Shown one piece after another: positions 655 through 48,195 of a stretch of 64,000 nucleotides of DNA. Position 1 is the first letter of the stretch. The number at the start of each line of letters is the position of its first letter. A program made the position numbers and the translations under genes. The notes beneath the pieces were generated by a model, which saw only the letters and a list, made by a program, of their open reading frames with translations, was not told where the DNA came from and made no database searches. Origin of the DNA: an uncultured Thermoplasmata archaeon. Its GTDB lineage: Archaea; Thermoplasmatota; Thermoplasmata; Lutacidiplasmatales; UBA184. The DNA lies in NCBI GenBank assembly GCA_963715645.1, contig OY970259.1, positions 2,860 through 66,859 on the forward strand, in the 5' to 3' direction.

Positions 655-1250
655 GTGGCGGACGACCTGCGGGAGTCGCGAGGCCAGGACGAGGTCCGTC
701 CCGAGCGCCGCGAGGAGCTCGACGCTACCGGGCGTGGCTGGGCACCCTGCCCGAGAAACACGACCGGCGCAATGTGCGAGGAGGAAGCGCTCATCCGGAA
801 GTGGCCCGGGCAGATCTCTGCTTCCACACCGGCCAGGCGACCGTCTTCGTGGCCGCGGCAGGGCGCCGGGCAAGACCAACACCCTCGCCTACCTGATCGA
901 GAAGGCCATCGAGAACCGGCCGGAGTGGGACGTCTACACGAACATCCCGTTCCCGTGGGACGGGGCGGCTGGCGGGAAGCGATCCCCGCTCCCGCCGCGC
1001 CTCCACCCGGTCCCAGTCTCACCGAGGTGCTCCGGGGCATCGCCGAGCACGATCCTCGGCGGAGCGGGTCCCGGCCATCGTCATCGACGAGATGGACCAG
1101 GCTGTCGCACCAGCCATGAATGGGCCAGCGGACCGGAGCGAGTCGTGGACGAAGTTCCTGTTCGTGGAGCGGCACTTCCGGGTCCGGGGCCCGCTCCTCG
1201 CCTACCACGTCTACGAGCACGTGCCCACTCCCGCTCCGCCGGGTCGGTGA
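655..1250 (+). CDS. P-loop NTPase (plasmid/virus type; Zot- or terminase-like is only a guess), frame interrupted
   Basis: Walker A-like APGKTNTLAYLIEKAI (GKTNTL codons 869-886, frame of ORF 383-1867) is preceded in another frame by TVFVAAAG. Walker B-like AIVIDEMDQ (1074-1100) lies in the third frame, which stops at TGA 1248-1250. Boundaries are approximate; the gene may continue into the protein-like stretch 1350-1640. Confidence 0.4.
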
Positions 1251-1857
1251 CTTCCGGGGCAGTTACTTCCGGGTCGTCGTGCTCGGGCGGAGAGCGGCTC
1301 CTCGCCCGGCGTCGAGGACACCTCGGCTTGGTGGGGCGTCCGGGAGAGCGTGCTGCCCTACCTCACCCTCGGGCTGCGGGGTTCGAGCCTCGACGTCGAC
1401 ATGGCGGACCTGGAGCGACACCTCGACGGCGACCGGAAGGAGGTCGCCCGGCAGATGCTGGCGTACCTCGACGAATCGAAGGACGCCGCGAGGCGGAGAA
1501 GCGCAGACCTCGCCAGCGGGCTGAGCGAAGCCGAGACCGCAAGCGCGGAGCGAGTGGACAAGGTCGAACGTCGCGTCGCGAACCGCCGAAGCCCGAGGGG
1601 TCGAAAGACGCCGAAATCATGCGTCGCCCTCGGCGAGCGGCCGAAGCCACCAACGCCGAGCTGGGCGCGGTACCAGCACGAACGTCAGCGGGCCACCTCC
1701 AGAAGCTGCGCGCAGCGGGTCGCCGCCGAGCGGGCCATGCTACGGCCGTCGCTCTCAGTGGGAGGTCGAGGCATGATGCCGCGCGAGCTCTCCGCGCGCG
1801 CGCGAGGATGGCCCGGGCCGGCTCCCGCGGGGGAATGGGCCCGATCCGCACGAACAG

Positions 1858-2491
1858 GTGGGGATGATCGACCTCGTTCCGACCTCGGAGGCCTTCCTGA
1901 CCTCCTTCGTGCTGGTCGCCCCCTTCGTGATGTTCCTACGACCGCGCTTCCTGAGCCTCGCCGGAGGGGCCACCTTTGTGGCCCTCGCGGCCCTCCTGGT
2001 CGAGGTCCTGGTCCAGAACGCCCTCCAGCCCCTCTACGCGGCCGCGGTCGTCCTCGTCTTCGTGGCGCCGCTGACCGAGGAGCTACTCAAGTTCCTCGAC
2101 TCCGGCCTCACCGGGGCGAACTACGCCTCCGCCGCCGGGTGCGGGGATCGGCTTCGCGGCGACCGAGAATGCGCTCTACTTCCTCGTCGCGTGGGGGGAG
2201 CCCCTCTCCTACCTCGTGGCCCTGATCGCCGTCCGAGCGGCCACGGACCCGCTGCTCCACGTAACGGCGACGACCCTCACCACCCTCTCCTGGCACGGCC
2301 GCCCATGGGGACTGCCTGCCGGCATCGCCCTTCACGCCCTCTGGAACGCCGTTGCGCTGATCGAGGTCGTCATCGACCCGACGGTCGGCCTCCTCCTGCT
2401 GGGCGCGGCCGGGTTCGCGGTTCTCGGGATCCTTCTCTTGCTCCGGCGCAGCCCGGACGTCCGGGACACGCTGACGACCGCTGGAGGATGA
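1858..2491 (+). CDS. PrsW-family intramembrane protease, one frame change near 2135-2150
   Basis: ORF 1858-2532 has TM helices and VAPLTEELLKF (E-E-x-x-K). The frame of ORF 2216-2491 then gives GIGFAATENALYF and IALHALWNAV. These three motifs in this order are the PrsW signature. Confidence 0.6.
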
Positions 2492-2541
2492 ACCCGTGGT
2501 CGGGGTCGCTGCTGCCGGCGGGAGCGGCATGAGGTAGAAAC

Positions 2542-3582
2542 ATGGCCGAGGAGAAGTGGTCGAGCCACGTGGGGCACCTCGAGGAGGGCGGGCTCCACGG
2601 CTGGTGCGCGAGTTGCCCTCCGGAGGAACGACACCGGGCCATCGAGCGGACGGTCCGGGCCGACGGCTACGCGACCGCGACGCGGCGGCTGAACTTCCTC
2701 GCGAACGTGGCGAACCGACGCGACAACGAGCACCTGCATCGGGTCGCGCGCGAGGATCTCGAGTGGGCCGAGCGGTGGGAGAAGGAGACGCGCGAGGACG
2801 AGGACCGCCGTCGGGAACGGGGCGAGTTCCACCGGGTGGAGGGTATCGGAAGGAGGACGGGGATCGGGTCCGGCCGCACCTCGCGCGGAATCCCCGGAGG
2901 CGCTGATGGTGGACGAAGAGATCGAAATCACCGAGGACGGCCGTCGCGAGCTCCCGGACGGGACCGTGGAGGTGAGGGGGCACTGGGTCGCACGGGCCCC
3001 GGGCGGGAAGGCCTATCGACGGGCCCATCGGAGGCGGAGGCGCCGATGACCGTCCGCTCCGGGCCGGACGCCTGGGCCGTGCTCCGGCTAAGGTCGGAGG
3101 CTTCCCTCCTGAGGCACCGGAAGACCCAGGTGCAGGACTACGGGTACTCCCCCACGAGCTGGCCTCGCTGTCGGACGCGGCCTCTGCCGCGGACCGGATG
3201 GCCGCCGCGATCGAGGCCGGGAACGCGCGGTCCCTCCGGCGAGAACCGAACCGAGTTCGACAAGTTCATCGACTACGCCGGGTCGGCCTCGCCCTACGGC
3301 GGGAAGCCGGGGACGACTCCGGTCGACGAGATCGCGGCCGACTGGGAGGCGGGCCGGGAGAAGGAGACCGACGAGGAGGAAGACCGGAGGCGTGAGTCCG
3401 GCGGGCGGCACCCCGTCCGCGGCCACCCGATGGAGGTCGACGGAAAGCGGGTCCACGTCCGGCCCGCCTCGCCCGGAACCCACGGGGACGTCGATGAGCG
3501 TCCCCGAGAAGCGCTCGCGTGGGTTGCCCGGTGGCATACCAGCGGGGAGGGCCTGAGCCGCGGGGATCGCGCTCGAAGGTGA
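2542..3582 (+). CDS. hypothetical protein with an internal ~30-aa repeat
   Basis: ATG 2542. The N-terminal ~100 aa look protein-like (HLEEGGLHGWCASCPPEERHRAIERTVRADGYATATRRLNFLANVANRRDNEHLH). The central part is Arg/Gly-rich and may be out of frame. The repeat is described in findings. Confidence 0.35.
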   Translation: MAEEKWSSHVGHLEEGGLHGWCASCPPEERHRAIERTVRADGYATATRRLNFLANVANRRDNEHLHRVAREDLEWAERWEKETREDEDRRRERGEFHRVEGIGRRTGIGSGRTSRGIPGGADGGRRDRNHRGRPSRAPGRDRGGEGALGRTGPGREGLSTGPSEAEAPMTVRSGPDAWAVLRLRSEASLLRHRKTQVQDYGYSPTSWPRCRTRPLPRTGWPPRSRPGTRGPSGENRTEFDKFIDYAGSASPYGGKPGTTPVDEIAADWEAGREKETDEEEDRRRESGGRHPVRGHPMEVDGKRVHVRPASPGTHGDVDERPREALAWVARWHTSGEGLSRGDRARR

Positions 3583-3629
3583 TCGGGGACTCTTCCGAAT
3601 GGAGGGCGACCGTTGAAGGCGGGCGGACG

Positions 3630-4331
3630 ATGACCGGTGGGACCACGGCGCTCTACGTGCGAGTGAGCTCGGAGGAGCAAGACCTCGTCGGACAGGAACG
3701 AGAGTTGCGCGGCTACGCCGAGGCCAGGAACTGGACGGTCGTCGGCAGCTACGCCGAGAAGGTCACGGGGACCGGGAAGGTCGAGCGCAAGGCGTACGAA
3801 CGTCTCCTGCGGGACGCGGAGGAACGGAGGTTCGATCACTTGGTGGTGTGGGCGCTGGACCGGTTCAGTCGGGAGGAGACGTTCACGAGGGCCACGCAAG
3901 CGATCCTCGACCTGGAGGGACTCGGTATCCGGTTTCACTCGCTCAAGGAACCGATGTTGGACACCCCCGAGGACGGCCAGCCGAACCTCGGAAGAGACGT
4001 TCTGCTCGCCCTGCTTCCGGTCATTGCGAGCTTCGAGTCGAAGCGTCGGTCGGAACGCGTCCGTGTGGCGATGCGGGAGATCAAGGAGGGGCGACGGCGG
4101 ACGCGCAGCGGGCGGCCGCCGGGTCGGCCCGTCCGGGCGACGCCCGAGAAGGTGTCGGCGATCGTTCGCCTGAAGGCCCAGGGGCTGACGTGGAGGGTCA
4201 TCGCCCAGCGAGTCGGGCTGCCGAGGGGGACCTGCGCCAACGTCGCGTCCCGGGTCCGGAGGGGGCGGTTACACAACTCGCTCACTACAAAAGGGTCTGC
4301 CGGGCCTTCGACGGACCCGGCCCCTACGTAA
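3630..4331 (+). CDS. small serine recombinase (resolvase/invertase family)
   Basis: ATG 3630 within ORF 3519-4331. Motifs: ALYVRVSSEEQ (catalytic Ser), VVWALDRFSRE, and a C-terminal HTH GLTWRVIAQRVGLPRGTCANV. Transcribed towards the low-GC island. Confidence 0.9.
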   Translation: MTGGTTALYVRVSSEEQDLVGQERELRGYAEARNWTVVGSYAEKVTGTGKVERKAYERLLRDAEERRFDHLVVWALDRFSREETFTRATQAILDLEGLGIRFHSLKEPMLDTPEDGQPNLGRDVLLALLPVIASFESKRRSERVRVAMREIKEGRRRTRSGRPPGRPVRATPEKVSAIVRLKAQGLTWRVIAQRVGLPRGTCANVASRVRRGRLHNSLTTKGSAGPSTDPAPT

Positions 4332-4379
4332 AGTGCCCGTTTCCGGCGACCCGACGCAGGTAGTCACGGAGAAAAGAAC

Positions 4380-6908
4380 TTGGACCAACCTTCAAGTCGC
4401 CTCGGGTGCGTGGGGGGAGAAGGGGGTCCAACCCATCACCGCGAACAGTCAAACGGTGGAGCCACAGGCGCAGCAGCTACTCCTCGACATCCAGCAGTTC
4501 GATACCTGAACGCAGATCGGGATTACGTGCTTGCATCGCTCTGGAGCGCGATAAAGAGAATCGAAGAGACATTTCCGCGCTTCGGACACTTTCTGATGGA
4601 ATTCATCCAGAACGCGGACGACGCGGGAGCATCCCGGATTCTTATTGAGATTCTTGCCGACCGCATTCTCATCCTAAACAATGGGACCGAGTTCGCCGCC
4701 AAAGATGTGGCAAGTCTATGCAAGGTCGGCCTCTCATCCAAGAGATCGGGGGACTACATTGGGTACCTCGGAGTAGGGTTCAAGTCCGTATTTCTGATCT
4801 CCGATAAGGTCGCCGTGACCTCGGGGGAGTACAGGCTTCAGCTTCGACAAATCACAGGCGGAGTCCTCCTGGGGCTCTAGCGTTCCTTGGCAAGTGATTC
4901 CCATATCGGCGGAGCGTATAGCAGACGTCAATGGTGACTGGCGATCTGGATTCTCAATCTCTCTTGCCCCAGCCTCCGAGCCGGTGGTTTCCAGAATCAG
5001 TCAAGAAGCCGGCCCCGAAGAGTTCCGCACCCGTACTTTGCTCTTCTTACGTCACGTGAATGAAATCGAGATCGTAAATCACACAACTTCCCCAGGGCGA
5101 CGTATCCTCTCGAAGCATCTCGCTGAGAAGGCAACAGTCCATGAAGTCTGGGAACTTTCAGACACACGCGACGGAAGCACTCTGGTAGACGCGCGATTTC
5201 TGTTGTTCAGGCGAACCGTCTGCGTGCCCGACGAGGTCCGAGCAGACGAAATGACGGTGAGGTTCGACCGCACGGACGCGGTATCCAGGGAGGTGGTTGT
5301 TGCCTTCCGCTTGGCTCAGACAGGCGAATTGTTGGCCGAACCCAAAGGCACTTTGCACCTCGCAGTTTTCAGTTTCCTTCCGATTCGAGATGTAGTGACC
5401 GGCCTCCAATTCACGATTCAGGGCGACTTCCTCACCGGACCCGGTCGCTCGAGCATCCAGTACGATGCGACTTGGAACCACTGGCTCGCCGATGAGATAC
5501 TCAGATTGATTCGCGAAGTCTGTGTGCCCACATTCTTGGGGAATCCGTTGTGGGCTGCTACGTTTGCACCGCTACTCGATGCAGGTCATTCAATGGACCC
5601 AATCTTCGGCTTGAGAATCGCGCAGCCGTTGCGAACGGCGCTCCAAAGGGACGCGTGGTATCTGACCGAGGGGGGAGACAAGATATCCTTGGATCGGGCC
5701 ATATTGATCGCATCCCCCTACCGGTCGCTACTCACTGACGGAGACCTTGCAGAGCTAACCCTGATAGGAAGACTACTCGATTCGGTTGTAAAGCTTCCGC
5801 CCGGCCTCTCGTACGCGGCAATAAGCATTCAGAATGATTCTAGGTACTGGGACCACTTTCGAAGCTCGCCCCATCTAAGGCCAGCGCGAAGAACCAAGCT
5901 TGGTTCGAGTCAAACTATCGGCGACAGCCCGGACCGCCCAACGGAATTGATGGGTTCGGGCCGGGTACCTGACTGACGACTTCCAGCTTGTGAATCACAG
6001 GAGTGTCTATCGACTTCCTACAGGGACCAGCATTCCCGGCGTCGCTGCGCGATGTTGTAAGGATTGCTCACCCTGTTCTCACGGGAAGCCCATGGGGAGA
6101 ATCAATCTCGGAACTCAATGACCAAGGTATTAGGGACCTCCTTTCCCTCAAACGACTTCCGGAGCTACAGGCAGAATGGCCGAGACTCGCCCCAGCCGCG
6201 CGAACGATGACGCTGCATGAACTCTTCAACATGTGGCGCGCAGGTCAAGTATATCCTCCAGCCCTAAGAGTTCCTGACTTTCCGGGAAGGGACGGTGAGT
6301 GGATCCCAGCCAACCGACTCCTACTCTCTATGGAGTATGGCCCCACTCACCATCTCGACGAGCTCGAGCAGAGGAAGCTGTTCGACCTGCATTTCACGAC
6401 AGGTCTGGCGTTCCTCGATCCGGTGCTCGTGAGCTCGTCGACAAATCAGGACCTCCCAGACTGGCGCGATTTCTTGACTGGACTGGGAGTAGATCGAGAA
6501 TTGAACGATCACCCCGAACGATTCTCTCAACGCATTGGGGTCATGTGCGCTCTTCGGCACGAACGAAATCGTGGGCGAACTCCGGCCGAGTTAGAGGAGA
6601 GCGCCAAACGAGGGTACGACATCGAATCCACGTCCGCCGACGGAACGATGCTGTATATCGAGGCAAAGGGTAGCAAGGACCAGAAACCAGATGTCCGGCT
6701 CACGGTGAACGAATTCAGGGCGCTCAAGATTAAAGGTGATTCATACCACGTTTACATCGCTCGCGAATGCATGGACCTCCCCCGAACTCTACATTCTTGG
6801 AGGGGAGAGATTGACCGACCCGACATTGGAGTATTCTGTGTCGATTGCCGGTACGCACAGTGGATCCAGCTCAAAGAGGGGCCTGTTACATTTCCGAATG
6901 CCGAGTGA
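4380..6908 (+). CDS. sacsin/HSP90-like GHKL ATPase fused to a DUF3883-type PD-(D/E)xK domain; interrupted (ORFs 4380-4880, 4894-5976, 6003-6908)
   Basis: N-terminal Bergerat-fold motifs FLMEFIQNADDAGA and GYLGVGFKSVF. The C-terminal motif is RGYDIES..LYIEAKGSK (D..ExK). The first frame switch lies between 4819 and 4836 (G5 run at 4823-4827; one G fewer gives ..TSGSTGFSFDKSQAESSWGSSVPWQVIPI). Further switches lie around 5870-6000. Confidence 0.75.
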
Positions 6909-7332
6909 ACATCGTACCTCATTACGATCGCTATGGCTCGCAATGGAGGAAAGGGAGTCCGAACGAGCGGACTTCCCGCCCGGTATGACCTCGTGGGTAG
7001 TTTGCCCCGCTAGCGGTGCTGGAAATTCGTTGAGTGACTTCACAGGACTTGGCATCCAACGCCTTCACACAAAGGACCGATTCTCTGGTGAGGGATATGA
7101 GGAGGGGGAGTGGAAAGTAGATCACGCAGATCCGAGGTTGCAAGGTGGCCCCACCGAACTTGAATACCTCGTACAGGCATGCAGAAGATGCAATCGTCAA
7201 GAGAGCGCCTCGGAAGAAAGAGAGTTCCGGGAGGAGTTTGAGACTGATGGCACTGTATCTCGAATGCTCGAGTCCATTGGCCTTTCACCGGAACGATTTA
7301 GCCTGCCTCCAGAGAAGCACCGGAACGGCTAA
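6898..7332 (+). CDS. small HNH endonuclease
   Basis: WKVDHADPRLQGGPTELEYLVQACRRCNRQE (D-H ... N ... CxxCN). ATG 6898 overlaps the upstream stop (TGA 6906-6908). ATG 6943 is an alternative start. Confidence 0.7.
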   Translation: MPSEHRTSLRSLWLAMEERESERADFPPGMTSWVVCPASGAGNSLSDFTGLGIQRLHTKDRFSGEGYEEGEWKVDHADPRLQGGPTELEYLVQACRRCNRQESASEEREFREEFETDGTVSRMLESIGLSPERFSLPPEKHRNG

Positions 7333-8315: not shown

Positions 8316-10354
8316 TTACGGGGACGGGGGAGCAGCCGGCCTGACGAAACCGGTAAGTTGGGTCCACATTGCCATTATGGATGCAGGGGGCGGGGAGTTC
8401 AAGGCGACCTCGCGCGCGACCGCGGGAGCCCTTAATCCGTTCCTTGACCTGACCTCGCGAAGGGCGGCTTCCAACACTAGCGGGGCGCACTCCTTCTCCA
8501 GAAGCTCCGAGAAATCGTCGTACGGGTAGAGGTGGGCGCTTGAGGCATACTCGGCCACCGCCTCCTTCGCCTTTTGGTCCGCTATGATCCTAAACGGAAT
8601 CCCCCACGCTGTCAGAACGCGCACGAACCCGTCGAAGCTCTGCTGACCACCAGCGTCAATGACCTCCACGCCACTGCGCGCCAAGTCAACGCCGTCGGAG
8701 AGTACTCGAAACCACTCTGGTAGGGCAGCGGCCTCCGATCCACCCTCGACAAGTAGGACCTTTTCGCTGAAGAGGGCGCGCGTCAACTGAGGAGTCCGCT
8801 CCAGGTCGCGGATCACTCGCCGAGAGTCACTTTCGATGAGTGTCCCTAAGCGAAAGACTTGGGTCTCTCCAGTAGCCGACGAGAAGCGCAGGAGGCTGAG
8901 CGCCTCCCGTGGAATCACAAAGGCGTCCGAGTGACTGACTATGAAGACTTGATTCCCCAAGGTAGTAGCGGCCTCGGAAATCAAGCTCAGAAGGTCGCGC
9001 TGTTTGACCGGGTGAAGATTTAGCGCGGGCTCGTCCAAGAGAATTACCGATTGTGTTCGGCCGAGGACGAGAAGGAAGGGAAGAAGGAGTTCAAGCAAAC
9101 CGGCAGCGACGGCCTCCGAGGAGAATTCGATCCACTCGTTACTCCAGCGCAGAGAAGCGACTTGGACCGGGTCGGGCATCGGCGATGATCGCGTGACGAC
9201 CTTGCCGTCCAAGACGAAAAGAGGTAAAGGCCCGCTCTCGGGCTGAGCAGGCCAGGACTCCACGACCACGTCGATGCCGTGCCCGGTGAATCTTCGGTAG
9301 ACCTCAACGAGTTCCTCAAAACGGGCACGCTCGGCCGGGATGACGCTGTTCTTCGAGCCGGTACGAGTACGTTCGGAACCGTGCTGCCGTCCACCGGACT
9401 CGCGGCGATTGGGATTGAGTAGATGGGCGGGATCTTCGTGCGCTCGGGCGTCGAGCGCGCGTCAGAGAGTCGAACCGTGGAGGACTGGAAAACCAACCCG
9501 GCAAGGTCCCGGAGCCCGAATCCCTCGGAGAGTGTATCCTGCGTCAGCAAGGAATGTCCTCAGGCGCAGAACGTCCAGGCCGAGCCGCCCGTCCGGTTTT
9601 CGTAGTTCTCTATCTCAAAGCCGAACGTGCTCAGGATGACGGGGTAGGGGCCCTTCGGCTGCATCTTAGTGAGGAACCAATCGAGGTTGAGCGATGAGGC
9701 GAACTCGTCGGAGTCCTTCTCATCGACGGGTTTCTGCTTGTCGCCAAGGGCGATGATGCCGGGTTGCCGGGCCTCCAACTCCTGAACGACCTCTTCCCCG
9801 AGGTTCACCAATCCCCATCCCATCGCGCGGGCAGAGGTGGTAGACAGTCCATTGGACGTCAGGAACAGAGGCGTCGGAAGCCCGAGCATCTCGACAAAGT
9901 AGTCGAGCGGATCCGACTGGTCCTCCCGCCCTCGCACACAGAACTGAAGCTTCCGAGAGAACAACTCGACAAAGGTTGGTCGTGCGCGGTTGAGAAGCTC
10001 GCGCGCAATCCGCTGGGCAACGTTAGTGTCCACATCGTTCTTGCCTCCGAACCTGAGATCTCCTTTAATCGAGGCAAGCAGGAGGTCGGCCAGAACCTCG
10101 ATCTCATCTCGGGCGAGAGAGATGTCTACTCTCACTGACGGAATCCGGGCCGTGTCGTAACGGTGGACGAACGGCTGAGCCGTCTTGATGCGTCCGGTGA
10201 ATACGTCCCCTACGAACTCAATGGCTCTAAGGAAATTCGTCTTGCCTGCTCCGTTCGGTCCGACGATGACCGTGCGCTGCGGGATTCCTTCGAGCAGAAT
10301 ACCAGGGTCCCCGAAGGTCAGGAAGTTTCGGGCCTCTACCCGCTCAATCTTCAT
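8316..10354 (-). pseudogene. OLD/PARIS-like ABC-type ATPase-TOPRIM nuclease, with an in-frame TGA and one frameshift as assembled
   Basis: ORF 9560-10354 has Walker A VIVGPNGAGKTNFLRAIEF. ORF 8316-9269 (open upstream to ~9365) has VILLDEPALNLHP, IVSHS, then TOPRIM-like KVLLVEGGSEAAALPEWF ... VIDAGGQQ. TGA 9560-9562 is in frame with the following GHSLLTQDTLSEGFGL (ORF 9044-9550). A frame change near 9355-9365 joins the rest. Confidence 0.75.
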
Positions 10355-10762
10355 TCCACGACCCTTCAGATGGGCCGAGGGAACTACTCGTCTAAGAAGG
10401 TTCGTTGAGCTGGCGCTCTGAAATGGTTCAGCGCAGAGGACGATCTTGAAAACGACTCGGACATGGACCCCCTCCCTCCGGACTTACCGCAATCGCCCAC
10501 TGGGACCTGTGGGGGGGCGTGACCGAATCGCTCAGTCCTCGGCCGCCCACCTATGCGAACGGGGCTCGGACCTAGTCCGGCTGAGAACCAGACCGAGCAC
10601 GGCGGCAGCGGCTCGGTCTCGAGTCGACCAACGCACTCTAGTAGAACGAGGCTCTTTGGTACGTTCATGACTATCAGACATAGGAGGGGTGGACAGCCCC
10701 TCGCTCGTCGAGCTCGCGTGCGCCGGGCGGAGGGACACGGTCCGTGTCGCACAGCACTCTAA

Positions 10763-12172
10763 GCCAGCCCGCTGATAGCCTCGCCTCTCCTAATCAGTGG
10801 AAAACCACGGACCTTACCCCGGTCAAGAAATCCGCGAGGGGTAGCCACCACCGGCACGGGAACTTATCTGCGGGGGGACGGAAGAGACCGGTGTCAAATC
10901 ACCACCCCTTCAAGCGTCGTTCGATTCATTTGGGAACAAGTCGCCAGTCGGAGGCGCAGAATCGGTTCCGTCATCGATCTCGGAGCAGGCAACGGCCGGT
11001 TCGCCACACAGGGGAGGTACCGCAGCTATCTGGGGCTCGAGATCGACCCGGATCAGGCATCTCGGCCAGCACTTCCGGCGAACGCTCGGGTGGTCAGAAA
11101 GTGCGTTCTGGAGTCCAGCGGGAAGTTTGACCTCGCCATTGGGAATCCGCCCTTCATTCGGAACCAAGACCTCGCAAAGACATGGACTGCGGCCGCTCGG
11201 AGCCTCATCCTACGTTCTCTCGGGCAGGACATCGGCCGGCTGAGCAATCTTTACCTCTACTTCCTCTGGCTCGCAATGCTGAGGACCAAGAGCGATGGCG
11301 TAATCGCGATGGTGCTCCCGTTCGAATGGACATTCAGGCCGACATCGCGCCGTCTGCGATCGTACATTCACCAGAAGGGGTGGGAGGTCACGGTCTATCG
11401 TTTCACGCAGCCCGACCGGTACTTCCCGCGAATCGCGGCGGTTCCCTCAGTTACGATCATCGACAAGGCCACGACCCAAGGCGGGATCAGTGTCTTCGAC
11501 GTTGGCCCTCGATTAGGAATCTTCCGGGCCCTCCCCCCAAACTCAACCATTGAGGGCATGTTCGAATACGAACGACATGCGGGGCGAGTCTTCGCTCGTC
11601 GCGGACTAAGCCCCGGATCCCAGCATGTCTTCACATTGACGGAGCGCGAACGCAGCGAAGCTGGCATCGCCCGTTCAAGCGTCCATCCTTGCGTGACCAG
11701 TCTGCGGGCCCTCCCGTATTCCGTCCGACAGTTGACCGGCGATCGGTTTAGGTCGTACTACGTGAACGCGGGAAAGAAGTGCTGGCTACTCCGGACAGAC
11801 GCCATGCCTCTCCCTCCTCCTGTCGCCGGATGGTTGAGAAGCGCGCCCGGCTGGGTGAAACGGAATTCGACCTGCCGGGATCGATACCCCTGGTATCGAT
11901 ACAAGGTTCCCACCCCAGCGGCGATCCTATACTCCTCGGCGTTCAAGGGCACTGTCCGCCCAAAGATGATGGTCAATGCTGTTCGCGCGGTGAATCTCGG
12001 CTCAGTTCATGGGGTCCACGGTCTAAAAAGCGCCGGCGAACTTCCGGTCCTGTACGAGCGCTTGCGCAGGCTGAACTACGCGCGAGGCACCCTCCCCGGT
12101 CCGGGTGGTCTAAGGAAGCTGGAAGTTCGCCAGATGAACGGCATTCTCAAACGGTTCTATATGCCTGGGTAG
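10763..12172 (+). CDS. gamma-class N6-adenine-type DNA methyltransferase (Eco57I/TaqI-like); no canonical in-frame start before motif I
   Basis: The frame is open from 10763. Motifs: TTPSSVVRFIWEQV, motif I VIDLGAGNGRF (10970-11002) and motif IV NPPF (11144-11155). The first ATG/GTG/TTG in frame is GTG 11090 (track ORF 11090-12172), which lies downstream of motif I. A GTG at 10744 in another frame suggests a 5' frameshift. Confidence 0.8.
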   Translation, partial: ASPLIASPLLISGKPRTLPRSRNPRGVATTGTGTYLRGDGRDRCQITTPSSVVRFIWEQVASRRRRIGSVIDLGAGNGRFATQGRYRSYLGLEIDPDQASRPALPANARVVRKCVLESSGKFDLAIGNPPFIRNQDLAKTWTAAARSLILRSLGQDIGRLSNLYLYFLWLAMLRTKSDGVIAMVLPFEWTFRPTSRRLRSYIHQKGWEVTVYRFTQPDRYFPRIAAVPSVTIIDKATTQGGISVFDVGPRLGIFRALPPNSTIEGMFEYERHAGRVFARRGLSPGSQHVFTLTERERSEAGIARSSVHPCVTSLRALPYSVRQLTGDRFRSYYVNAGKKCWLLRTDAMPLPPPVAGWLRSAPGWVKRNSTCRDRYPWYRYKVPTPAAILYSSAFKGTVRPKMMVNAVRAVNLGSVHGVHGLKSAGELPVLYERLRRLNYARGTLPGPGGLRKLEVRQMNGILKRFYMPG

Positions 12173-12190
12173 CACCAGGCCAGAGAGTCC

Positions 12191-14430
12191 ATGGTCGCTG
12201 AAACTGTCCCGCTAGACACGGGTATCGCCCGGTTCTCCAGCGATTCACAGCTGCTCTCGGAGCTAGGAGAGCGTCTCATCGCTGACCCGGTGATTGCTCT
12301 CGCAGAGCTCATCAAGAACGCGTACGACGCGGATGCAACTGAAGCGAACGTGTACTTGGAGAGCGGGCCTGATCCAGTCCTGATCGTACGCGACAATGGT
12401 CATGGCATGTCCAAGGACGATTTCCTGAACTACTGGATGATAGTGGGAACTCCCGCGAAGCTCGGCGCGGAGAAGTCACGACGGTTTCATCGGCCCCTTA
12501 CTGGCTCGAAGGGTGTCGGACGTTTCGCGGTACGCCTGCTTGGCAAGTCGCTCCACCTAGAGTCGGTCTCCTTTGACGCCTCCGTCAAGGAATGGCGGAG
12601 GCTCGTCGCGGACTTTGAATGGGGCAAGTTCGCATCGGGAAGCGACCTGGGAACGGTTTCTGTGCCCTACAAAATCTACCGCGAGGCGAACAAAGCGGAA
12701 GCAGGAACCCGACTCTCCATCGGGACTCTGCGGGACAAGTGGTCAGATTCGGACCTCGCTCTTGTCACCCAGGATGTGCTCGACATTGTAGAACCGCCGT
12801 TTCCCCTGACAAGTGGCCCGGCCAAGACCAGCCAAGGGGCCGCGGATCCCGGATTCTCCCTCTTTTTCTCGCCCCCGGGCCAAGGCGAACGCGCCACTCA
12901 GGCCGCCGACGAACTCGTTGAGAGATGGCAGGCGCGGATGCTGATCACCGTGGCGGGCACCGCTGCGCAGTACCAATGCTTCTACAAGGACCAGAAGGGT
13001 AAGCCCAAACAGTGGACCGTTTCACTCGACAAGAACCTCGTCGGTGACGTGACTGCCGAACTCCGGTACTTTCCGAGGCGGGCCGGCATGTTTAGCAACA
13101 TGACCAACATGGACGGTCGAGACGTCATTAGCTATCTTCGAAAACGCGGTGGCGTTCGCATCATCAATCGCGGCTTCCGGATTCGACCATACGGGGAGCC
13201 CGATGACGACTGGCTCGGACTCTCACGTTCCAAGGCTAGGAACGAGCGAAGATGGAACTCCCCCTACACGGAAGTACTCTATCCGAGGGCCAAGTTGCCC
13301 CGGGAGGAGTCGCTCGACCCGCTCCTGAAGCTGCCTGCGAATCACCAACTCTTGGGGACCGTGTGTGTCGAGAGTTTCCAATCTGACCAATCGAAGGGGG
13401 TCAACTCCGATTCGGATCGCCTCCAGCCGGCTATGGACCGTCAGGGGTTCGTGGACAATGCGGGGTTCAACCAGCTCTCTCGCCTCATACGGACCGCAAC
13501 GGAACTAATCGCGGTCGTCGACCGAGAGCAGGGAGTCAAACGCGACAAGGATCGGGAGGCCCGCGTTACCCGTGAGGTTCAGGTCAAGATCGACACCGCG
13601 ATTGAACGAGTTCAGAAGAGCCGAGAGATTGCACCGAAGGAGAAGCGCGCCATAGTCGAGTCCTACCGGGAGATTCAATCCGCGGTCGCGGTCTCTGCCC
13701 AGGCGCACGGTCAAACACTCCGCGCTGTCGAGGCGATGTCCCTCCTCGGCGTTCTTGCTGGATTCATGACCCACGAAACGACGGTCATGCAGAGGGCATC
13801 CGAAGAAATGATCAAAGCCCTTCGGGCCATTCCGGCCCGGAATCGACCCGTCGGCTATGATACATTGCTGTCGCGCGTTGAAGAAGCCAACCGCGAGTTC
13901 AAGAGTCACATCGAGTACGCCCGCTTGTTCCTTACGAACATTCACGAGCGCGAGGTCCGTCCGTACCCGGTTCGGCCTCAGGTAAAGCGGGTATAGATCA
14001 TTTCAAATCGTTCATGGACGCCCGTTCCATTCGAGGCGAGAATACCGTCTCTACTGACGAGCGTTCCCCCGCGATCGGGGTCGGGGTCTACTCGGGAATA
14101 TTGCTAAACCTCTTCACGAATGCCCTAAAAGCCGTCGTGAAGGTGGACAATCGAGAGAGGCTGATTCAGGTCTCGGCGGAATCTACGCCTCAGGGGCACA
14201 AACTTCGGGTGTCCGACACTGGTGTTGGGATTCCCCTTGAGCTGCAGGGCCTAATCTTTGAGCCGTTCATCACAACGACCGGGGACGAAGGACCTCTCGG
14301 GAGCGGGATGGGGCTTGGACTCCACATTGTCCGTCGGGTCCTCGATTCCATAGGTGGGCGAATAGAATTGGTGGATCCACCCGATGGATTCGTGACGTGT
14401 TTCGAGGTGACCTTCCAAAATGCCAAGTGA
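12191..14430 (+). CDS. MORC/HATPase_c_3-like GHKL ATPase fused to a histidine kinase core (HisKA + HATPase_c); split into ORFs 12191-13996 and 14014-14430
   Basis: N-terminal motifs: ALAELIKNAYDADA, VRDNGHGMS, GSKGVGRFA. A long helical linker follows. H-box LLGVLAGFMTHETTVMQ (His codon 13772-13774). N box LLNLFTNALKA, G1 VSDTGVGIP, G2 GSGMGLGLHIV. The two ORFs are separated only by TAG 13994-13996 plus a frame change. The second frame is open from at least 13921, so a 1-nt indel would fuse them (~745 aa). Confidence 0.8.
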
Positions 14431-15307
14431 GGGGGTTGACGCGCGGGTCCTCATCATAGAGGACACTGAGGAGACATACCAGAGACTCAGCACGCTTCTT
14501 TCCGCCAAGAGCGCTGCCCTTCGGTTCTCAACCGAGCGGCTGTCGATTGAACCAGGGAATGGTTCGGACCTTCCGGCTACAGAGGAGGTTGTGCGGAGCC
14601 GTCTACTTGACCCTAACCCGACTTCGTTGGTGCTCCTAGACCTCGACCTGAGCAAATTTCCCAAGCACGTTGCCCGAGAGTTCGTGCAGGGGGTCTGCTC
14701 CGATCGGAGGATCCCGATTTGTGTTTACAACTACCGACCTGACGTCCTTCAACGGCTCAAGGATCTGCGTCAGTGGCAAGAAGAGGCAATCTCAATCACG
14801 GATTGCGGCACGATTGAGGAACTGGCCGAGAGATTCCTTGACTGCATCGGTGGATTCATGGCACTTCGGGCCTCGCTCTCTCAGTCAGGGAGGGGAGACT
14901 TCCGACAGACAATTCGTCAGATTCTGCAATGCCCGAAGGACGCTAGGATACAGCTGGACCAGTACTTCTGGGGTCGATTCGAGCCCCTCCAGGTCGCGGA
15001 GCTTTCCCCGGAGGAACGCGTCCGAGTCTTCACAACTTCCTTGGGATACTGGGTCTACAACGTATTGCTCCGATTCCCAGGTGTCTTGCTCGGTGTAAAG
15101 CCGGCAGCTTCATACCTGGACATTGACGTGGATGCGTTCTGCACCAAACCGGAGATACAGAAACTCTTTGATGCTGCGCGCTATAAAGGGCCATTTTCCG
15201 GCGTGCGACCTTATTGGTGGGCCAGCTCGCTCGACCAGATACTCGCTGAAGGGATGGTAGAGAGTGACACATCCATGGTTTCCGGGGAACACCCACGCAG
15301 AACGTAG
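14420..15307 (+). CDS. receiver (REC)-like domain protein with an unassigned C-terminal domain
   Basis: RVLIIEDTEE (acidic pocket) and LVLLDLDLS (phospho-acceptor-type Asp, codons 14638-14646). About 170 aa of C-terminal sequence have no recognisable family. ATG 14420 overlaps the kinase stop (14428-14430) by 11 nt. Confidence 0.65.
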   Translation: MPSEGVDARVLIIEDTEETYQRLSTLLSAKSAALRFSTERLSIEPGNGSDLPATEEVVRSRLLDPNPTSLVLLDLDLSKFPKHVAREFVQGVCSDRRIPICVYNYRPDVLQRLKDLRQWQEEAISITDCGTIEELAERFLDCIGGFMALRASLSQSGRGDFRQTIRQILQCPKDARIQLDQYFWGRFEPLQVAELSPEERVRVFTTSLGYWVYNVLLRFPGVLLGVKPAASYLDIDVDAFCTKPEIQKLFDAARYKGPFSGVRPYWWASSLDQILAEGMVESDTSMVSGEHPRRT

Positions 15308-15496
15308 GGGATTTTCAGTTCCCCGGTGTCGGTGTCTTAGGGGGCATGACGGCGCGGGGTACTTCTTCATAATCCGGGAGGAGCCAGTCTGCGCCGAGCA
15401 CTCTGTCAGACCTAGCGGTTGGCTGCCCGTGGGAGCGGATCAATCTCGATCGAACAGGAAAAGATAGACGAGCTGAACCCGTGGCTCGCCCTGTAA

Positions 15497-16001
15497 TTGC
15501 GATTGGAGATGTCCGAGTATCACGCGCGGGCCGGCCCCTACTTGAACCCGATTCGTCGGGCGTACGAAGACTTTTGGCGGACGCTTACGGGCTTGACAGG
15601 AGGGAAGGCCGAGCCGATAATTCGCGAAAACCTCGATGTGAGAGTCCAACGCGATTCCGCAGGGGAAGAGTGCGTTTATGTCGTCTCTCGTCCGGCCTTC
15701 AGGCTCCGAGGTCTCTCGGCGCGTCGTAGAGATGTGCACCGATCCGACTATGACGTGTACATCGCAGTTGAACAATCAGTCCGCGCTCGCGAGGCACCGG
15801 TGGATGGACGGACATTCGATGCCGTCCGTCTGCGTGCGGGTAAGCTACATGGACTGTGAGGAAAGCCCCAACGAGCCCCACGGAGCCACCGGTTCCGATC
15901 CTGGGCGGGTCCACATCGGAATCCACTTCGATCTGAGCGACGAGGAGTCCGGCCCCTCGATTTCTACGATCATCCGATCTTTCACGCCCAATACGACCTG
16001 A
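15497..16001 (+). CDS. hypothetical protein, probably one frame change (ORFs 15497-15859 and 15678-16001)
   Basis: The likely start is ATG 15509 (MSEYHARAGPYLNPIRRAYEDFW). The second ORF continues with VSYMDCEESPNEPHGATGSDPGRVHIGIHFDL. No family recognised. Confidence 0.3.
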
Positions 16002-16871
16002 GGTGCATCGACCCGGCTTCGGTCGGTAGAACGTGCGTCCCGTCGCAGGACTCGGCCCGATGTGACTCCCCCAGAATCCCGACTGCGCCCATGGACTTCT
16101 CAGGAGTCGTGTTCGCGATTTTGCGGGATCACCTGCCGGACACGGTGGCGTCCGGATGGCCTCAAGACATGCGGGAGGCATTGATTGCACTACCTCACCT
16201 CCCGACTGGCCGCTTCGCCCCATTCGTCAACGGAACAAGCGGATTGTCGGCGCTTGGCGGGACCGGTCTGACGGCAAGAGACCCCCAACGTGACCCTCCC
16301 AAACGAGTCACTTAGGATTCGGGGCAATCCGCAATCCCGTTCGACCAGTCCAGGAGGTATCGAGACTCAGACCGAACTTCGACAAATCAATCCGGTGGCC
16401 CGAAGAGTATGAGAGATCCGGTGGGAAGCACAACTCCGCATTCCCGCCGGTGGATTAGTTTCCACGATTCCGACTGGACCCCAGCCGGTCTGTCAGGCGT
16501 GGAACGGTCCTCCGCCGCCGATCTCGGTCATCATTCGTCGAGGGATGAGGGCCCGCCGCCGCGAGCGCTGTCACGACGCGATTGGAAACCGGTTGAGAGC
16601 TGCAGGTTCGGAGAGCGAGCTCGGATCTTCGGTCGTGACCAAGATCAGGGGTTCAGTCTCACCCGGACTCGAAGTGTCGAAGAGCCATTGGGCCGGGGGA
16701 TCAATGGAGTGACGTTCACGGCGAACCAACCCACGTGGCCCCGGTTCAGGCGTGCCCTGCGGCGGGGTGCGGGGTCCATGTCTGATGGATCGCCGGGCAG
16801 GTGGCCGGATGGTGGTCTCCCTCTCGGAGTTATAGACGAACGTATCGTGGCGCTCCTCCTTCAGCGCTGAT

Positions 16872-17495: not shown

Positions 17496-17735
17496 ATGGC
17501 GAGCCTGAAGGATGAGGTTTCGGACGCCCTAAAGAAGCAGGGTTCACCCGCCGGGGCCCTTCCGTTGTGGGAGGAGATTCACGCGGGCTACGAGCGTGGC
17601 GGCTCAGACGCAGTCTGGAACCTCCTCGAGGGCAAGGTGAAGGCGATTCGGAGGTCCGCCAAGGCGGAGGCTTCGGAGATGAAGGCCGCGGCGGGATCGG
17701 TCAAAGCAAGGGCCCGTGCGAAGAGGAAGCGGTGA
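17496..17735 (+). CDS. small helical Lys/Glu-rich protein (79 aa)
   Basis: Intact ORF. Its TGA (17733-17735) overlaps the GTG 17732 start of the downstream ATPase (GTGA). Confidence 0.5.
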   Translation: MASLKDEVSDALKKQGSPAGALPLWEEIHAGYERGGSDAVWNLLEGKVKAIRRSAKAEASEMKAAAGSVKARARAKRKR

Positions 17736-19988
17736 AGGGCGAGGATGGAAAGGTCCACCTGAAAGCCCTTGACGTCGAGGGATTCAGGGGAGCCAACAAG
17801 AAGGTTCACCTCGACTTCAGCCCCCGAGCGACGGTGCTCTCAGCGTGGAATGGGAGGGGAAAGAGCACCCTGCTGGGCGCCGTAGAGTGGGGTCTCTTTG
17901 GAGAGCTTAAATTCCAACCCCCGGAAAACCGGACCCGTGACGAGCTTGTCAGCCTCTTCCATCCTGGAGGCCGCGCATCCGTCCAGTTGACCCTGTCCAG
18001 GGACAGCGAGGACATCCGGGTGAGTAGAACCCGGGTGGTCGGCAAAATGGGTTCCAGTCTTGAGGTTCGAGATGGTTCCGGCAAGACTCTCGAGGACGAC
18101 GAAGCGGCAGAGTTCATCTTCCGGCTCGACGGGGCTCGGGTTCGACGATTTCTATCGGGCCGCATTCCTCCATCAAGATAGTATCCGCGGACTCTTGACC
18201 GAGGAGCAAAAGGACCGAGACGAGGCCTTGGATCGGCTCCTCGGAGTCGAAACGATTCGGAATCTCTTGACATCGATTCCTCTAAGGCCCGTCTCCACCG
18301 CCCTTGACGAGATAGAGAACCAAGAAGGGAGGTTGATGGAACGGCTCGCCGGCGCCGGGGGTGTTGCCGAAGGGACTCGATCGCGTGCCCGCGAGGAGGC
18401 CCTCGGGGCAGGGTATGACGAAGAAGAGCTCACCATCAAGAAAGGGTTCGACGAATCTCAGGCCCTTCTCGCGGACTTGCGCCGTGTCTGCATGAAGTAT
18501 GACGCCGAGGCGCCTGGTGAGGCTACGGTTGAGAATCTGGAGGACCTCGAACGCGTAGCGCGGCGGATCAAGTCCGCAACCCGGGCGATTCGGTTGACGG
18601 TCGGAAAGGAATCCCCCCTGGACGTCGCAGTGGGCCGTCTCGGGATGTTGAAGAAGTGGAGAGTAGAGATTGAGACGGCCCAAATCGATCTTCAGGCTTC
18701 ACAAACTGCGGTGGAGGAGCACGGCAAGGAACACGGCAAGCCTGAGCAGTGGGCCGGGACGCGGTCCTCACTTCTCGAGGCGATCGAGCGAAGCGAGGGG
18801 GCGCTCCACGTCCTCGACATTCACGGAAAGGTGGTGGCCGACGCTATAGCCTACTTGGAGGCAGTTCCGTCCTCCCGCGAGTGTCCCGTCTGCGGCGACC
18901 CGAAGGAGGCCGCCAAGCTCGCTTCGCTTCTTCGGACGAAGATATCCAAGGGCCAGGCCACCGAGGTTCGACGCCTTCGCGAGGAGGTGGCGGAGGCCAA
19001 GCTAAAGATTCGAGGGCCTAGGCAGAGCTCGAGACACGACGGGGTCGGCTCGTGGCCGAATCCGAACGATGCGCCACGTCGCTCAAGGAGACGCTCGACA
19101 CGACGTGGAAGGACCTTGGCAGGAAGGGGGAAACCGGGGATCCAGTCACCACGATCAAGAAGGAGGAGGGGGCCCTCAATGGTAAGCTCCAAGGACTGCG
19201 AAACCTGAACCTCGAACGAGAAGGAGATCTCCAGAAGCTTGATGATGGCGCCGACCGCCTTCGAGCGTTGCAGCGCTTCGTCAAGGCGGACTCTGATTTC
19301 CAGCGAGTGCGCGAGAAGGCGGAGGGGGGAGATGATGGGGGAGCCAAGGCTTTCGACGAGGACAAGAGGCAGTTGGTTGCTCTGAGGACGGAACTTGAAT
19401 CAATAATCCAAGCGCTCAACGGCCTGTCCACCGGAAGGGCACAGGAGGCACTCGCGCGCTGCGGCGAGGACATTTCGCGGCTGTACGGATTCGCTCTGCA
19501 ATCACCCTTACTTCGACGGGCTGAAGATCGAAGTGAGCCAGAAGGCCGTGCAAGGAGTTCAGAGAAACACCTACCGGATCGTCGCCTATTCTTCGAAGGA
19601 CGGTCAGCGGACCGCGGCGAGCTCCCGACTCTCGACGGCACAGATGAATTGCGTGGCCCTAAGCGCGTATCTTTCTCTGGCTAAGGTCCTGACTCACAAT
19701 CTCGGGTTCATCTTGCTGGACGATCCAAGTCAGAACCTCGACGCTGAACACAAGAGCGCATTGGCTGGTGTCATCAAGGGGCTCTTCCCTTCGCTCCAAG
19801 TAGTCGTGGGAACCCATGACGCCGAGTTCGATGGATTCTTGCGTTCGAGTTTGGGCCGGGAAGAGGTTTCGTGGTACGACCTCAAATGGAACCCCGCGAC
19901 GGGACCTCGGTCATACCCAACAATGCCAATCATGGATGATGCTTCCCCCAGACTCGCTAAGGGTCCTGACAATGGTCCAGCAGCTTGA
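17732..19988 (+). CDS. Rad50/SbcC/SMC-like ATPase with coiled coil and central CxxC (zinc-hook-like); three frame changes
   Basis: The fragments alternate between two frames. 17732-18181 has Walker A WNGRGKSTLLGAVEWGLFG. 18060-19208 (meaningful ~18125-19020) has FDDFYRAAFLHQDS, coiled coil and ECPVCGD at 18879-18899. 19052-19684 is coiled coil. 19533-19988 has signature-like LSTAQMNCVALSAYLSLA, Walker B FILLDDPSQNLD and VVGTHD. Confidence 0.75.
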
Positions 19989-20437
19989 GGGGTCGTTCGG
20001 CGCTCAGCAATTCGGCCAAATCATGCAGACCCTCCTCGCAATTTCATTCCGAAGCGCCGGATTTGAGGTCGTCAAGAACGCAGTCGGGGTCCCTGACCTC
20101 CAGGCCTTCCATCCAGGCGAATCTGACGGGTACGCGATCGAGGCGAAGACCGGTAAGATGTCCGTCAGCCTGTCGAAGAGGGACCTCGATGGAGTCAGGT
20201 CGACCGGACGCATCCCGGTTGTCGCTGCCTTCTTCGTTTCCGATCCGAAGCCGCGTTGGTGGCTTGTCGACGCAAATGCAATGCGCGCGGCCACGTTACC
20301 GAAGGCACGAGATCGAGTCCAAACCCAGAGTAGACGTGGGCTTTGATCTTACCGACCAGTTTTCCCGAATTCTCGCTAGCAATATCCAGATCGCGATGGA
20401 GGGGCCGGGACCCCTGTCACGTTTACTCGGAGGCTAA
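19972..20437 (+). CDS. small PD-(D/E)xK nuclease-fold protein, one frame change near 20300-20312
   Basis: GVPDLQAFHPGESDGYAIEAKTGK = PD-x15-ExK. ATG 19972 (or 19936) overlaps the 3' end of the ATPase gene. The C-terminus continues in the frame of ORF 19985-20437 (EIESKPRVDVGFDLTDQFSRILASNIQ). Confidence 0.55.
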
Positions 20438-45138: not shown

Positions 45139-45145
45139 GGATGCG

Positions 45146-47572: not shown

Positions 47573-48195
47573 ATGGGGGACCTCCCGCGCTGCCGCGCGG
47601 CGACCTGGGCCGACGTCGACCGGTGGGCCGACAGCCTCGAAGAGCGGGTCCGGGCCGACCGGTCCCTCCGGAGACGATCGTCGGCCTGACCCGCGGAGGC
47701 TGGGTGCCCGGCTCGGCTCCTGGCCGACCGCCTCGGGGTCCACCGGGTCGTCTCCCTCCGCGCCCAGCACTGGGGCGTCACGGCGACCCCCACGGGGGCG
47801 GCCACGCTCACCGAGGGCCTCTCGGGCCCGGTGAAGGACCAACGGGTCCTGGTCGTGGACGACATCACCGACACCGGCGACAGTCTCGCGGCTCGGCGGT
47901 CGAGCACGTCCGGGCCGCCGGGCCGACCCACGTCGAGAGCGCGGCGTTCCTGCACATCGCGCACTCGAAGTTCGTGCCGACCTACTACGCCGAGGAGATC
48001 CCCCGGGGCCCTGGGCCTGGGTCGTCTTCCCCTGGAACTACTGGGAGGACATTGCGCACCCTCGCGGTCCGGGCCGCGGAGATCGCGCCCGGCCTCGAAG
48101 CGGTCCGGGCGACCCTGCAGGAGAGGGCGGGCCTCGACGTACCGCTGGCCGACCTGCGCCGCGTCGCCCGGCACCAGCCCCTCCTGAACGGCTGA
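47573..48195 (+). CDS. type I phosphoribosyltransferase (purine PRT-like), several frame changes
   Basis: IVGLTRGGWVPA and the PRPP motif RVLVVDDITDTGDS. C-terminal FVPTYYAEEIP ... WVVFPWNYWED is read across frames. The end of ORF 47362-48195 gives the stop. Confidence 0.65.

Follow-up and report, generated by a model that had tools for sequence, protein, structure and literature searches.

A four-gene cassette of DNA methylase, GHKL-histidine kinase, receiver-fold protein and conserved fourth protein from a Thermoplasmata archaeon, a distant relative of the Ambrosia defence system

Do genes for a DNA methyltransferase, a GHKL-histidine kinase fusion and a receiver-like protein that follow one another in an archaeal genome form a functional unit and, if so, of what kind? 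The genes lie in the window, meaning here the whole stretch of 64,000 nucleotides (nt) that was analysed (uncultured Thermoplasmata archaeon, GenBank assembly GCA_963715645.1, contig OY970259.1, positions 2,860 to 66,859 of the forward strand). The initial annotation described three co-directional genes and could name no system that joins a methylase to a His-Asp phosphorelay in a defence island; the junctions it gave, an 18-nt gap between methylase and kinase and an 11-nt overlap between the kinase and the third gene (g3), are correct, however a fourth gene (g4) was overlooked, and both PMC8011034 and the Ambrosia system (10.1101/2025.09.30.679545) precede the claim of novelty. Ambrosia is a validated anti-phage system of Pseudomonas aeruginosa, made up of an XRE regulator (AbrR), an N6 methylase (AbrA), the 747 amino acid (aa) protein AbrB, a receiver (AbrC, with D60) and an HNH nuclease (AbrD) (10.1101/2025.09.30.679545). 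The locus probably represents a four-gene module that is widespread and moves horizontally, and that falls among the methylase-linked, "two-component-like" defence systems of which Ambrosia is the type; the cassette is a distant, differently equipped relative of Ambrosia and not a new kind of system. A role in methylation-linked defence is favoured because the chassis is homologous to that of Ambrosia and the catalytic residues are conserved.

Gene 2 (12191 to 14430; all four cassette genes and the motifs within them are on the + strand) provides the link to Ambrosia. Its product is 746 aa when intact and consists of a paraMORC-like GHKL ATPase, a middle domain, a coiled coil and a core of dimerization and histidine phosphotransfer (DHp) and catalytic and ATP-binding (CA) domains. 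BLASTP of the window kinase against AbrB (Table S1 sequence) gives 24% identity over 380 aa with an E value of 1e-23, and judged by sequence the kinase is clearly a homologue of AbrB. Pfam places HATPase_c_3 at residues 35-132 (E 3e-19) and HATPase_c at residues 635-741 (E 3e-22), and detects no sensor domain besides the N-terminal GHKL module; in NCBIfam and PADLOC the N-terminus resembles the GHKL modules of BbrUII/HgiDII and MutL, and the C-terminus resembles many sensor kinases. The N-terminal ATP-binding motifs ELIKNAYDADA (with N43), DNGHGM and GSKGVGRFA are encoded at 12305 to 12529; the Bergerat-fold residues N43, D68/G70/G72 and G105-G110 are invariant in 16 family members, as are F525, H528 and E529 of the F-x-x-H-E H-box. 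His528, the predicted phospho-acceptor, is encoded at 13772 to 13774 within the H-box GFMTHE (13760-13777). The CA domain is complete, with the N box NLFTNALKA (14107-14133), the G1 box DTGVGI (14215-14232) and the G2 box GSGMGLGL (14299-14322), in which N644, D676/G678/G680 and G706/G708/G710 are invariant; the DHp and CA part of the family profile aligns to Thermotoga HK853 with an E value of 3e-16. Between the two ATPase modules the middle region displays the conserved stretches DPGF, GGVR..D.GFR..PYG...DDWL and PAMDRQGF, followed by the coiled coil. The GHKL N-terminus and full histidine-kinase core that had been proposed, with HATPase_c_3, HATPase_c, the H-box and the N, G1 and G2 boxes, are thus all found. 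The proposed length of about 745 aa is reached once a one-base deletion after 13993 is repaired; in the window itself, however, the gene is split into two open reading frames (ORFs) in different frames, 12191-13996 (601 aa) and 14014-14430 (138 aa). Intact 746 aa kinases, P0003 and P0296, are 99% identical to the window kinase.

The kinase family is large: a 90%-clustered database yields 1358 matches, and at least 537 stretches come from GTDB species representatives. Its members occur in haloarchaea, Thermoplasmatales, Acidobacteriota, Planctomycetota, Actinomycetota, Pseudomonas, Bradyrhizobium, Vibrio and others. For a census of gene order the 79 best kinase loci among species representatives were searched with iterated hidden Markov models of the methylase, g3 and g4. 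A g3 gene directly follows the kinase in 55 of the 79, and an Eco57I methylase is directly adjacent in 46 of these 55, which bears out the suggestion that the co-occurring genes are a real conserved unit. The exact order methylase-kinase-g3-g4 recurs in 28 of the 79 loci (in Acidobacteriota, Planctomycetota, Actinomycetota, Pseudomonas, Bradyrhizobium and others), so the genes are co-localised elsewhere and not only in this archaeon. In 14 further loci the gene after g3 encodes a protein of approximately 250 aa, remotely homologous to g4 (hhalign probability 94.5%, E 8e-8), and in 11 of these 14 the methylase is placed after the g4-like gene and not before the kinase. The other census loci mainly hold distant kinases (24-25% identical) followed by a different protein of 370-420 aa; a C5 cytosine methylase stands beside the distant kinase in both of the two loci examined, and Vsr in one of the two.

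Individual loci display the same arrangement at considerable distance. The metagenomic locus L001 encodes a 427 aa Eco57I methylase, a 764 aa HATPase_c_3/HATPase_c protein, a 365 aa g3 and a 246 aa protein, with overlapping junctions throughout; all four products match the window by tblastn, the locus being 33-40% identical (g3 34%). The four genes are also present in matching order, likewise with junctions that overlap, in a Thermoplasmatales metagenome-assembled genome (MAG) and in a haloarchaeon, and beyond the near-identical contigs the nearest relatives of the window kinase, g3 and g4 (L009-L012) belong to the Thermoplasmatales MAG and to haloarchaea.

Gene 1 (10744 to 12172) encodes an Eco57I-family, gamma-class (NPPF) N6-adenine DNA methyltransferase of approximately 475 aa, matched by Pfam Eco57I (E 1e-11) and by PADLOC MTase_II (E 6e-17); over 413 aa it shares 33% identity with the methylase of L001. 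Motif I, the S-adenosylmethionine-binding VIDLGAGNG (10970 to 10996), and the catalytic motif IV NPPF (11144 to 11155) are present where they had been reported. The frame is open from 10763, yet no in-frame start codon precedes 11090, a position already downstream of motif I. Compared with the near-identical contigs L008 and L090 the window carries an extra A at 10856, which separates a GTG start at 10744 from the body of the methylase; when this A is removed the GTG is joined to the body, and the resulting N-terminus (...RPGTY...CQITTP) aligns with the archaeal homologue from L009. In L090 a G is added at window position 11754, such that an alternative frame stays open and the C-terminus of the methylase is altered (a 485 aa call, L090 6324-7781); the window frame at 11754 matches distant homologues through to the C-terminus, and the 485 aa L090 methylase is, by these alignments, probably chimeric.

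The product of g3 (14420 to 15496) is 358 aa when intact, and comprises a receiver-fold domain (residues ~8-155) and a C-terminal domain of approximately 200 aa; two intact copies, P0001 and P0299, are 99% identical to the window g3. The protein had been described as receiver-like with a length of 295 aa; the first part stands by predicted structure, however Response_reg finds no match, and residue 295 is where the window ORF ends owing to frame-breaking indels at 15284 (+G), 15447 (-G) and ~15465. The AlphaFold2 (AF2) model of g3 has a predicted local distance difference test score (pLDDT) of 84.9 and a predicted TM-score (pTM) of 0.87, with residues 8-155 modelled as a (beta-alpha)5 domain running from beta1 to alpha5. 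Foldseek matches this model to the receivers of KdpE, PorX, PhoB and ArlR at a probability of 1.0, and the target-normalised TM-score against receiver-only entries is approximately 0.65-0.7. D15 and D74 are invariant in 35 sequences, with E/D14, D76 and S78 kept in 97% or more of them; IIEDTEE (14453-14473) contains the acidic pair E14-D15, and the predicted phospho-acceptor Asp74 is encoded at 14639 to 14641 in LLDLDLS (14633-14653). Sequence searches are silent: g3 has zero matches in Pfam (including Response_reg; the Pfam scan took in 35 members), NCBIfam, PADLOC and PHROGs, and nothing significant was obtained with the g3 profile against PDB sequences. An hhalign comparison of the profile with Escherichia coli CheY is likewise not significant, and places D12/D13 and D57 opposite E14/D15 and D74. 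By hhalign, the receiver region is remotely homologous to the receiver-like proteins that accompany the C5-methylase-linked kinases (probability 82%, E 1e-5).

The C-terminal ~200 aa of g3 are conserved more than the receiver, with Trp, Gly, Pro and Phe making up most of the invariant residues. Two Cys, C305 and C316, do not vary, and further Cys occur in other members; the Cys/His cluster (CRCLRGHDGAGYF...PVCAEHSV), encoded at 15327 to 15407 in a window frame that differs from that of the g3 start, is a possible small zinc-binding element. No significant match was found for the C-terminal domain. The top Foldseek match of g3 is full-length KdpE bound to DNA, and a g3 profile reaches the IRF4 DNA-binding domain at a sub-threshold E value of 0.17; the two alignments hint weakly at a winged helix, neither of them being significant.

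The fourth gene of the operon, g4 (15509 to 16293), encodes a 262 aa protein with the conserved pattern H-F-D...HPxFHAQ...RIPT..MD...DH...WWY; in the window it is in three frame pieces, with indels at ~15829 (-2), 15942-15955 and 16254, and an intact copy, P0243 (262 aa), is 99% identical. Its polar motif block (15924 to 16132) includes HFDLSD (15924-15941), HPIFHAQ (15971-15991), RIPTAPMD (16073-16096) and LRDH (16121-16132), and the 246 aa fourth product of L001 matches the window at 15971-16138 by tblastn. Relatives of g4 were gathered with the window fragment in the species-representative library; a concatenated g3 and g4 profile had retrieved g3 proteins alone among the top 120 matches listed. 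The residues D120, H129, H133 and P166 (alignment A4) and H156, H160, P192 and P195 (alignment A5) are invariant. The conserved Asp, the two His of HPxFHAQ, the RIPT proline and the DH pair suggest, from sequence, a metal-binding or acid-base site. In the AF2 model of g4 (pLDDT 87.5, pTM 0.88) a long helix is combined with a sheet whose long strands run antiparallel, and the C-terminal part is helical.

How would such a set of proteins operate? The N6-adenine methylase would mark DNA, and the GHKL ATPase of gene 2 is likely an ATP-driven clamp or sensor acting on DNA or on a phage cue; upon sensing, the kinase core would autophosphorylate His528 and the phosphoryl group would be passed to Asp74 of g3, which would turn on an output through its conserved C-terminal domain, either by direct activation of g4 or by induction of the operon. 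The output would fall to g4, which holds the position of the HNH nuclease in Ambrosia and has an invariant Asp/His cluster suggestive of a metal-dependent hydrolase. The analysis establishes domain identities, residue conservation, synteny, the island setting and the homology of the kinase to AbrB, whereas sensing, phosphotransfer, the chemistry of g4 and protection are inferred. The more specific proposal, which we put forward as possible but tentative, is of a distinct defence family in which a DNA-clamping GHKL-histidine kinase phosphorylates an atypical receiver, and this receiver directly activates g4 as a new-fold Asp/His metal-dependent nuclease; restriction would then be gated post-translationally by a His-Asp relay.

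Several findings weigh against a defence relay of this type. In g3 the canonical receiver Thr/Ser at the end of beta4 is not conserved, an invariant Tyr103-Ala-Arg being present instead, and there is no conserved Lys near beta5 (residues 121-131); because both of these canonical residues are missing, g3 is an atypical receiver and its competence for phosphorylation is uncertain. Foldseek returns no match for the g4 model (best E 0.5 in PDB and 0.3 in BFVD), and g4 has no match in Pfam, PADLOC, NCBIfam, PHROGs or PDB sequences; the label "nuclease" derives solely from its position and its Asp/His motif. The likeness to Ambrosia also does not extend to all components: hhalign detects no similarity between the g3 profile and AbrC (probability 1.4%), g4 has no similarity to AbrD and no HNH match in Pfam, and no XRE regulator is found upstream of the cassette, where 10355-10743 holds only short Arg/Pro-rich ORFs (in L090 the interval from the OLD-family gene to the methylase likewise contains no called gene). 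Defence models match only three of nine large flanking ORFs sampled. Finally, if the indels of the window are real, then this copy is dead.

An output through transcription, the model of the Ambrosia authors, differs from direct activation in that, once the kinase has sensed infection, phosphorylated g3 would be a DNA-binding transcription factor that induces the methylase and g4, with g4 not directly regulated by g3; the methylase would make the modification that the effector attacks, or the two would form an inducible restriction-modification-like pair. The Ambrosia data agree with it, since reporters of the system are barely expressed normally and are induced in infection, AbrC has been assigned a wHTH (winged helix-turn-helix), and AbrA methylation gave phage no protection (10.1101/2025.09.30.679545). 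In g3, the invariant Trp, Gly, Pro and Phe of the C-terminal domain suit a binding domain over an enzyme, and the KdpE-DNA and IRF4 alignments are two weak wHTH hints; however, both are below significance, the domain is unrelated in sequence to that of AbrC, and a promoter and terminator scan gave no signal above shuffled expectation. A transcriptional switch is rather doubtful for the present cassette.

All four cassette genes are broken in the window by indels of 1-2 bases, and interruptions also affect the OLD-family, sacsin-like and Lamassu-like genes nearby, which would fit a decaying pseudogene cluster whose frameshifts are real mutations in an island no longer under selection. The comparison with other contigs makes such decay unlikely. 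The genes are intact on near-identical metagenome contigs or copies from other samples (L090, L007, P0003, P0243), and in the JGI contig P0001/L007 g3 differs from the window by single-base indels, such as GGG in place of GGGG at 15284. The ENA contigs L008 and L090, which are named like long-read assemblies, align to the window at ~98%, with 73 indel columns in L008 and 53 in L090, and substitutions against the near-identical contigs amount to 1-6 per kb in the cassette; from 10 to 12 kb L008 and the window differ by eight indels and two substitutions, a ratio typical of long-read consensus errors. Each contig also carries private frameshifts: the L008 methylase is broken where that of the window is intact, and L090 has its own +G at window position 11754. 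Domain matches are truncated in ORFs of the high-GC flank too (44130-45854, +, and 48038-49747, -), Acyl-CoA_dh_N matching at profile positions 58-113 only, at the start of the ORF, and DUF373 at positions 3-135 of 335, a hint that indel errors run the length of the contig and are not confined to the island. As indels outnumber substitutions and near-identical copies are intact, the breaks, judged by these alignments, most likely stem from errors in the consensus of a long-read assembly rather than from decay; annotation of the window copy as a pseudogene is unwarranted without checking the reads. As a separate observation, one flank gene of the window carries DUF373. DUF373 is a mainly archaeal family.

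The genomic setting bears on whether the cassette serves defence at all. The window has approximately 70% G+C, which falls to 55-62% from ~4.3 to 22.2 kb, in a segment that starts beside a serine resolvase gene (3519-4331). Besides the cassette the segment carries a gene of sacsin-like HATPase_c_3/NOV_C type, one for an HNH protein (6736-7332), an OLD-family gene, a GGACT gene and a Lamassu LmuB-like SMC ATPase gene (17567-19988), and it looks like a mobile defence island; related loci adjoin genes for TIR-NACHT, reverse transcriptase, type IIG restriction-modification (RM) with PLD-SNF2, Hma, Shedu and phage portal proteins. The statement of the initial annotation that no endonuclease is adjacent does not hold, since an OLD-family ATPase-TOPRIM gene (8316-10354, -) lies divergently upstream and the HNH gene is close by. 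As candidates for the nuclease missing from the cassette, these OLD-family and HNH genes were ruled out, as neither is conserved with the cassette in three annotated loci.

A module outside defence, in which the GHKL-kinase and receiver pair would regulate or assist DNA methylation and repair by analogy with the Dcm-Vsr association of the sister family, or a selfish addiction module, is very unlikely. In its favour, relatives of MORC and MutL have roles in chromatin and in repair. Distant relatives of the kinase do sit with a C5 methylase and the Vsr mismatch endonuclease (PMC8011034); however, the cassette is spread patchily over phyla and both domains of life, it lies in low-GC islands with recombinases and known defence genes beside it, and the homologous Ambrosia protects against phage. 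An ordinary housekeeping two-component system beside an unrelated methylase, as would fit the database annotation of the kinase as "sensor histidine kinase", has a negligible chance of being correct, given that Pfam detects no sensor domain besides the GHKL module, that the synteny census contradicts it with tight linkage to methylase, g3 and g4 in distant taxa, and that g3 matches no response-regulator family model.

Further features of the island and of related loci are described here in their own right. The OLD-family (GajA-like) gene is in at least two frames in the window and is an intact gene of 678 aa in L090; the Lamassu LmuB-like SMC ATPase (17567-20346, +) is divided over three to four ORFs in the window, whereas L090 has it whole (734 aa), with a 154 aa gene behind it. 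From 16 to 20.5 kb the window and L090 differ by 23-80 substitutions per kb, against 1-6 in the cassette, and this jump in divergence suggests that recombination has replaced one allele with another. Two separate ORFs on the + strand, one for a sacsin-like HATPase_c_3 N-terminus (4380-4880) and the other for a NOV_C/DUF3883-like C-terminus (6003-6908), are probably one frameshifted gene, encoding a second GHKL-type protein of the defence island. In L008 an insertion sequence (DDE_Tnp_1) is inserted at the equivalent of window position ~5000. In the Thermoplasmatales MAG L009 (12299-15797, the same as the L011 locus) Mu-like portal and capsid-decoration genes come directly after the cassette, and a type IIG-like Eco57I protein and a PLD-SNF2 helicase are encoded upstream; the L009 cassette may be riding on a provirus. 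The cassette of L001 is flanked by genes for a 1472 aa TIR-GAF-NACHT-pentapeptide protein and a reverse transcriptase (1131-5549 and 12141-13406), and two paralogous ORFs of ~51-63 aa bracket it.

Among known systems, Detocs (DtcABC), in accounts attributed to Millman (2022) and Rousset (2023), reportedly uses a His-Asp phosphorelay as a defence switch. It differs from the cassette in lacking a methylase, in its sensor domain and in having its receiver fused to a PNP effector, and no PADLOC Detocs model matched any protein here. BREX/Pgl was rejected, as the methylase core has weak PglX matches (E ~1e-3) with no PglZ or BrxC. The eight-gene MADS (mad1-8) was rejected as well: a mad2-like match is confined to the methylase (E 7e-9), the kinase, g3 and g4 are without a mad match, and mad3-like matches fall on the neighbouring, unrelated OLD-family and SMC ATPases. 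MANTIS/Gao_RL, composed of an AAA+ ATPase, MtsB, a methylase and a PLD-helicase, is unrelated. Compared with type II restriction-modification (R-M), a methylase is present, and g4, which may be a nuclease, matches no known nuclease family or fold.

The closest precedents for the N-terminal half of the kinase are the paraMORC GHKL ATPases (Iyer, Abhiman, Aravind 2008, PMC2292703) and the GHKL-Shedu protein VcSduA (PMC12137116), which likewise have a MutL/MORC-like GHKL module at the N-terminus and occur in R-M or defence neighbourhoods; in these the GHKL module is proposed to control an associated nuclease (PMC2292703, PMC12137116), whereas in the cassette a histidine-kinase core takes the place of a nuclease as its fusion partner and a receiver-fold protein is paired with it. 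A closer parallel was described by Bellieny-Rabelo et al. (2021, PMC8011034): histidine kinase (HK)-like proteins with HATPase_c_3, a DHp-like region (HEF_HK) and HATPase_c, 91.6% of them linked to response regulator (RR)-like Response_reg_2 proteins, occur as pairs mostly beside C5 methylases, Vsr and HNH_2, and a cytoplasmic two-component-like system tied to R-M was proposed. The HEF_HK (PF19191)/Response_reg_2 (PF19192) pairs resemble the cassette in their soluble kinase architecture with an H-E box, in the receiver-like gene downstream and the methylase alongside, and in derivation of the family from paraMORCs; the distant census kinases match the HEF_HK description. They differ in that the kinases are approximately 24-25% identical and mainly linked to C5 methylases, with Vsr or HNH_2, and in that neither the g3 C-terminal domain nor g4 is shared. 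PF19191 and PF19192 are not reported for the kinase (E<=0.1) or for the 35 g3 members (E<=1), in a Pfam copy that is also silent on the C5-type loci L081 and L087 and may detect these families poorly.

On the question whether the trio corresponds to a system that already has a name, the cassette resembles Ambrosia in kind, and its kinase is homologous to AbrB; however strict membership does not follow. Both have an N6-adenine methylase, a protein of ~747 aa with HATPase_c_3 and HATPase_c, a receiver (in g3 by predicted fold) and a small fourth gene in series, and the GHKL motifs and the block GVRI..D.GFR..PYG..DWLGL are common to AbrB and the kinase. In Ambrosia, point mutants of the GHKL Asn, the receiver Asp and the methylase and nuclease residues each lost anti-phage activity (10.1101/2025.09.30.679545). 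The differences lie in the methylase, which is of the Eco57I family in the cassette and N6_Mtase/MmeI_Mtase in AbrA; in the third gene, where g3 has 358 aa and another C-terminal domain and AbrC has 209 aa; and in distribution, as Ambrosia has been reported in Gammaproteobacteria only, with 537 instances (10.1101/2025.09.30.679545), whereas the cassette family spans many bacterial phyla and archaea. The concept of a methylase-linked kinase and receiver is already published; what is new is a widespread bacterial and archaeal sister family of Ambrosia with two uncharacterised components. If this is right, the chassis would be a superfamily across bacterial phyla and archaea rather than a gammaproteobacterial curiosity, with an exchangeable methylase (N6 or C5) and an exchangeable fourth gene (HNH, Vsr or g4); and if the tentative proposal of direct g4 activation is also true, then this family, Ambrosia (HNH) and the Dcm-Vsr branch would jointly make up a superfamily of one sensor-kinase chassis with interchangeable methylases and effectors. 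The C-terminal domain of g3 and the whole of g4, which are conserved, confidently modelled and unmatched in the libraries, would be useful targets for understanding how a phosphorelay couples to DNA restriction.

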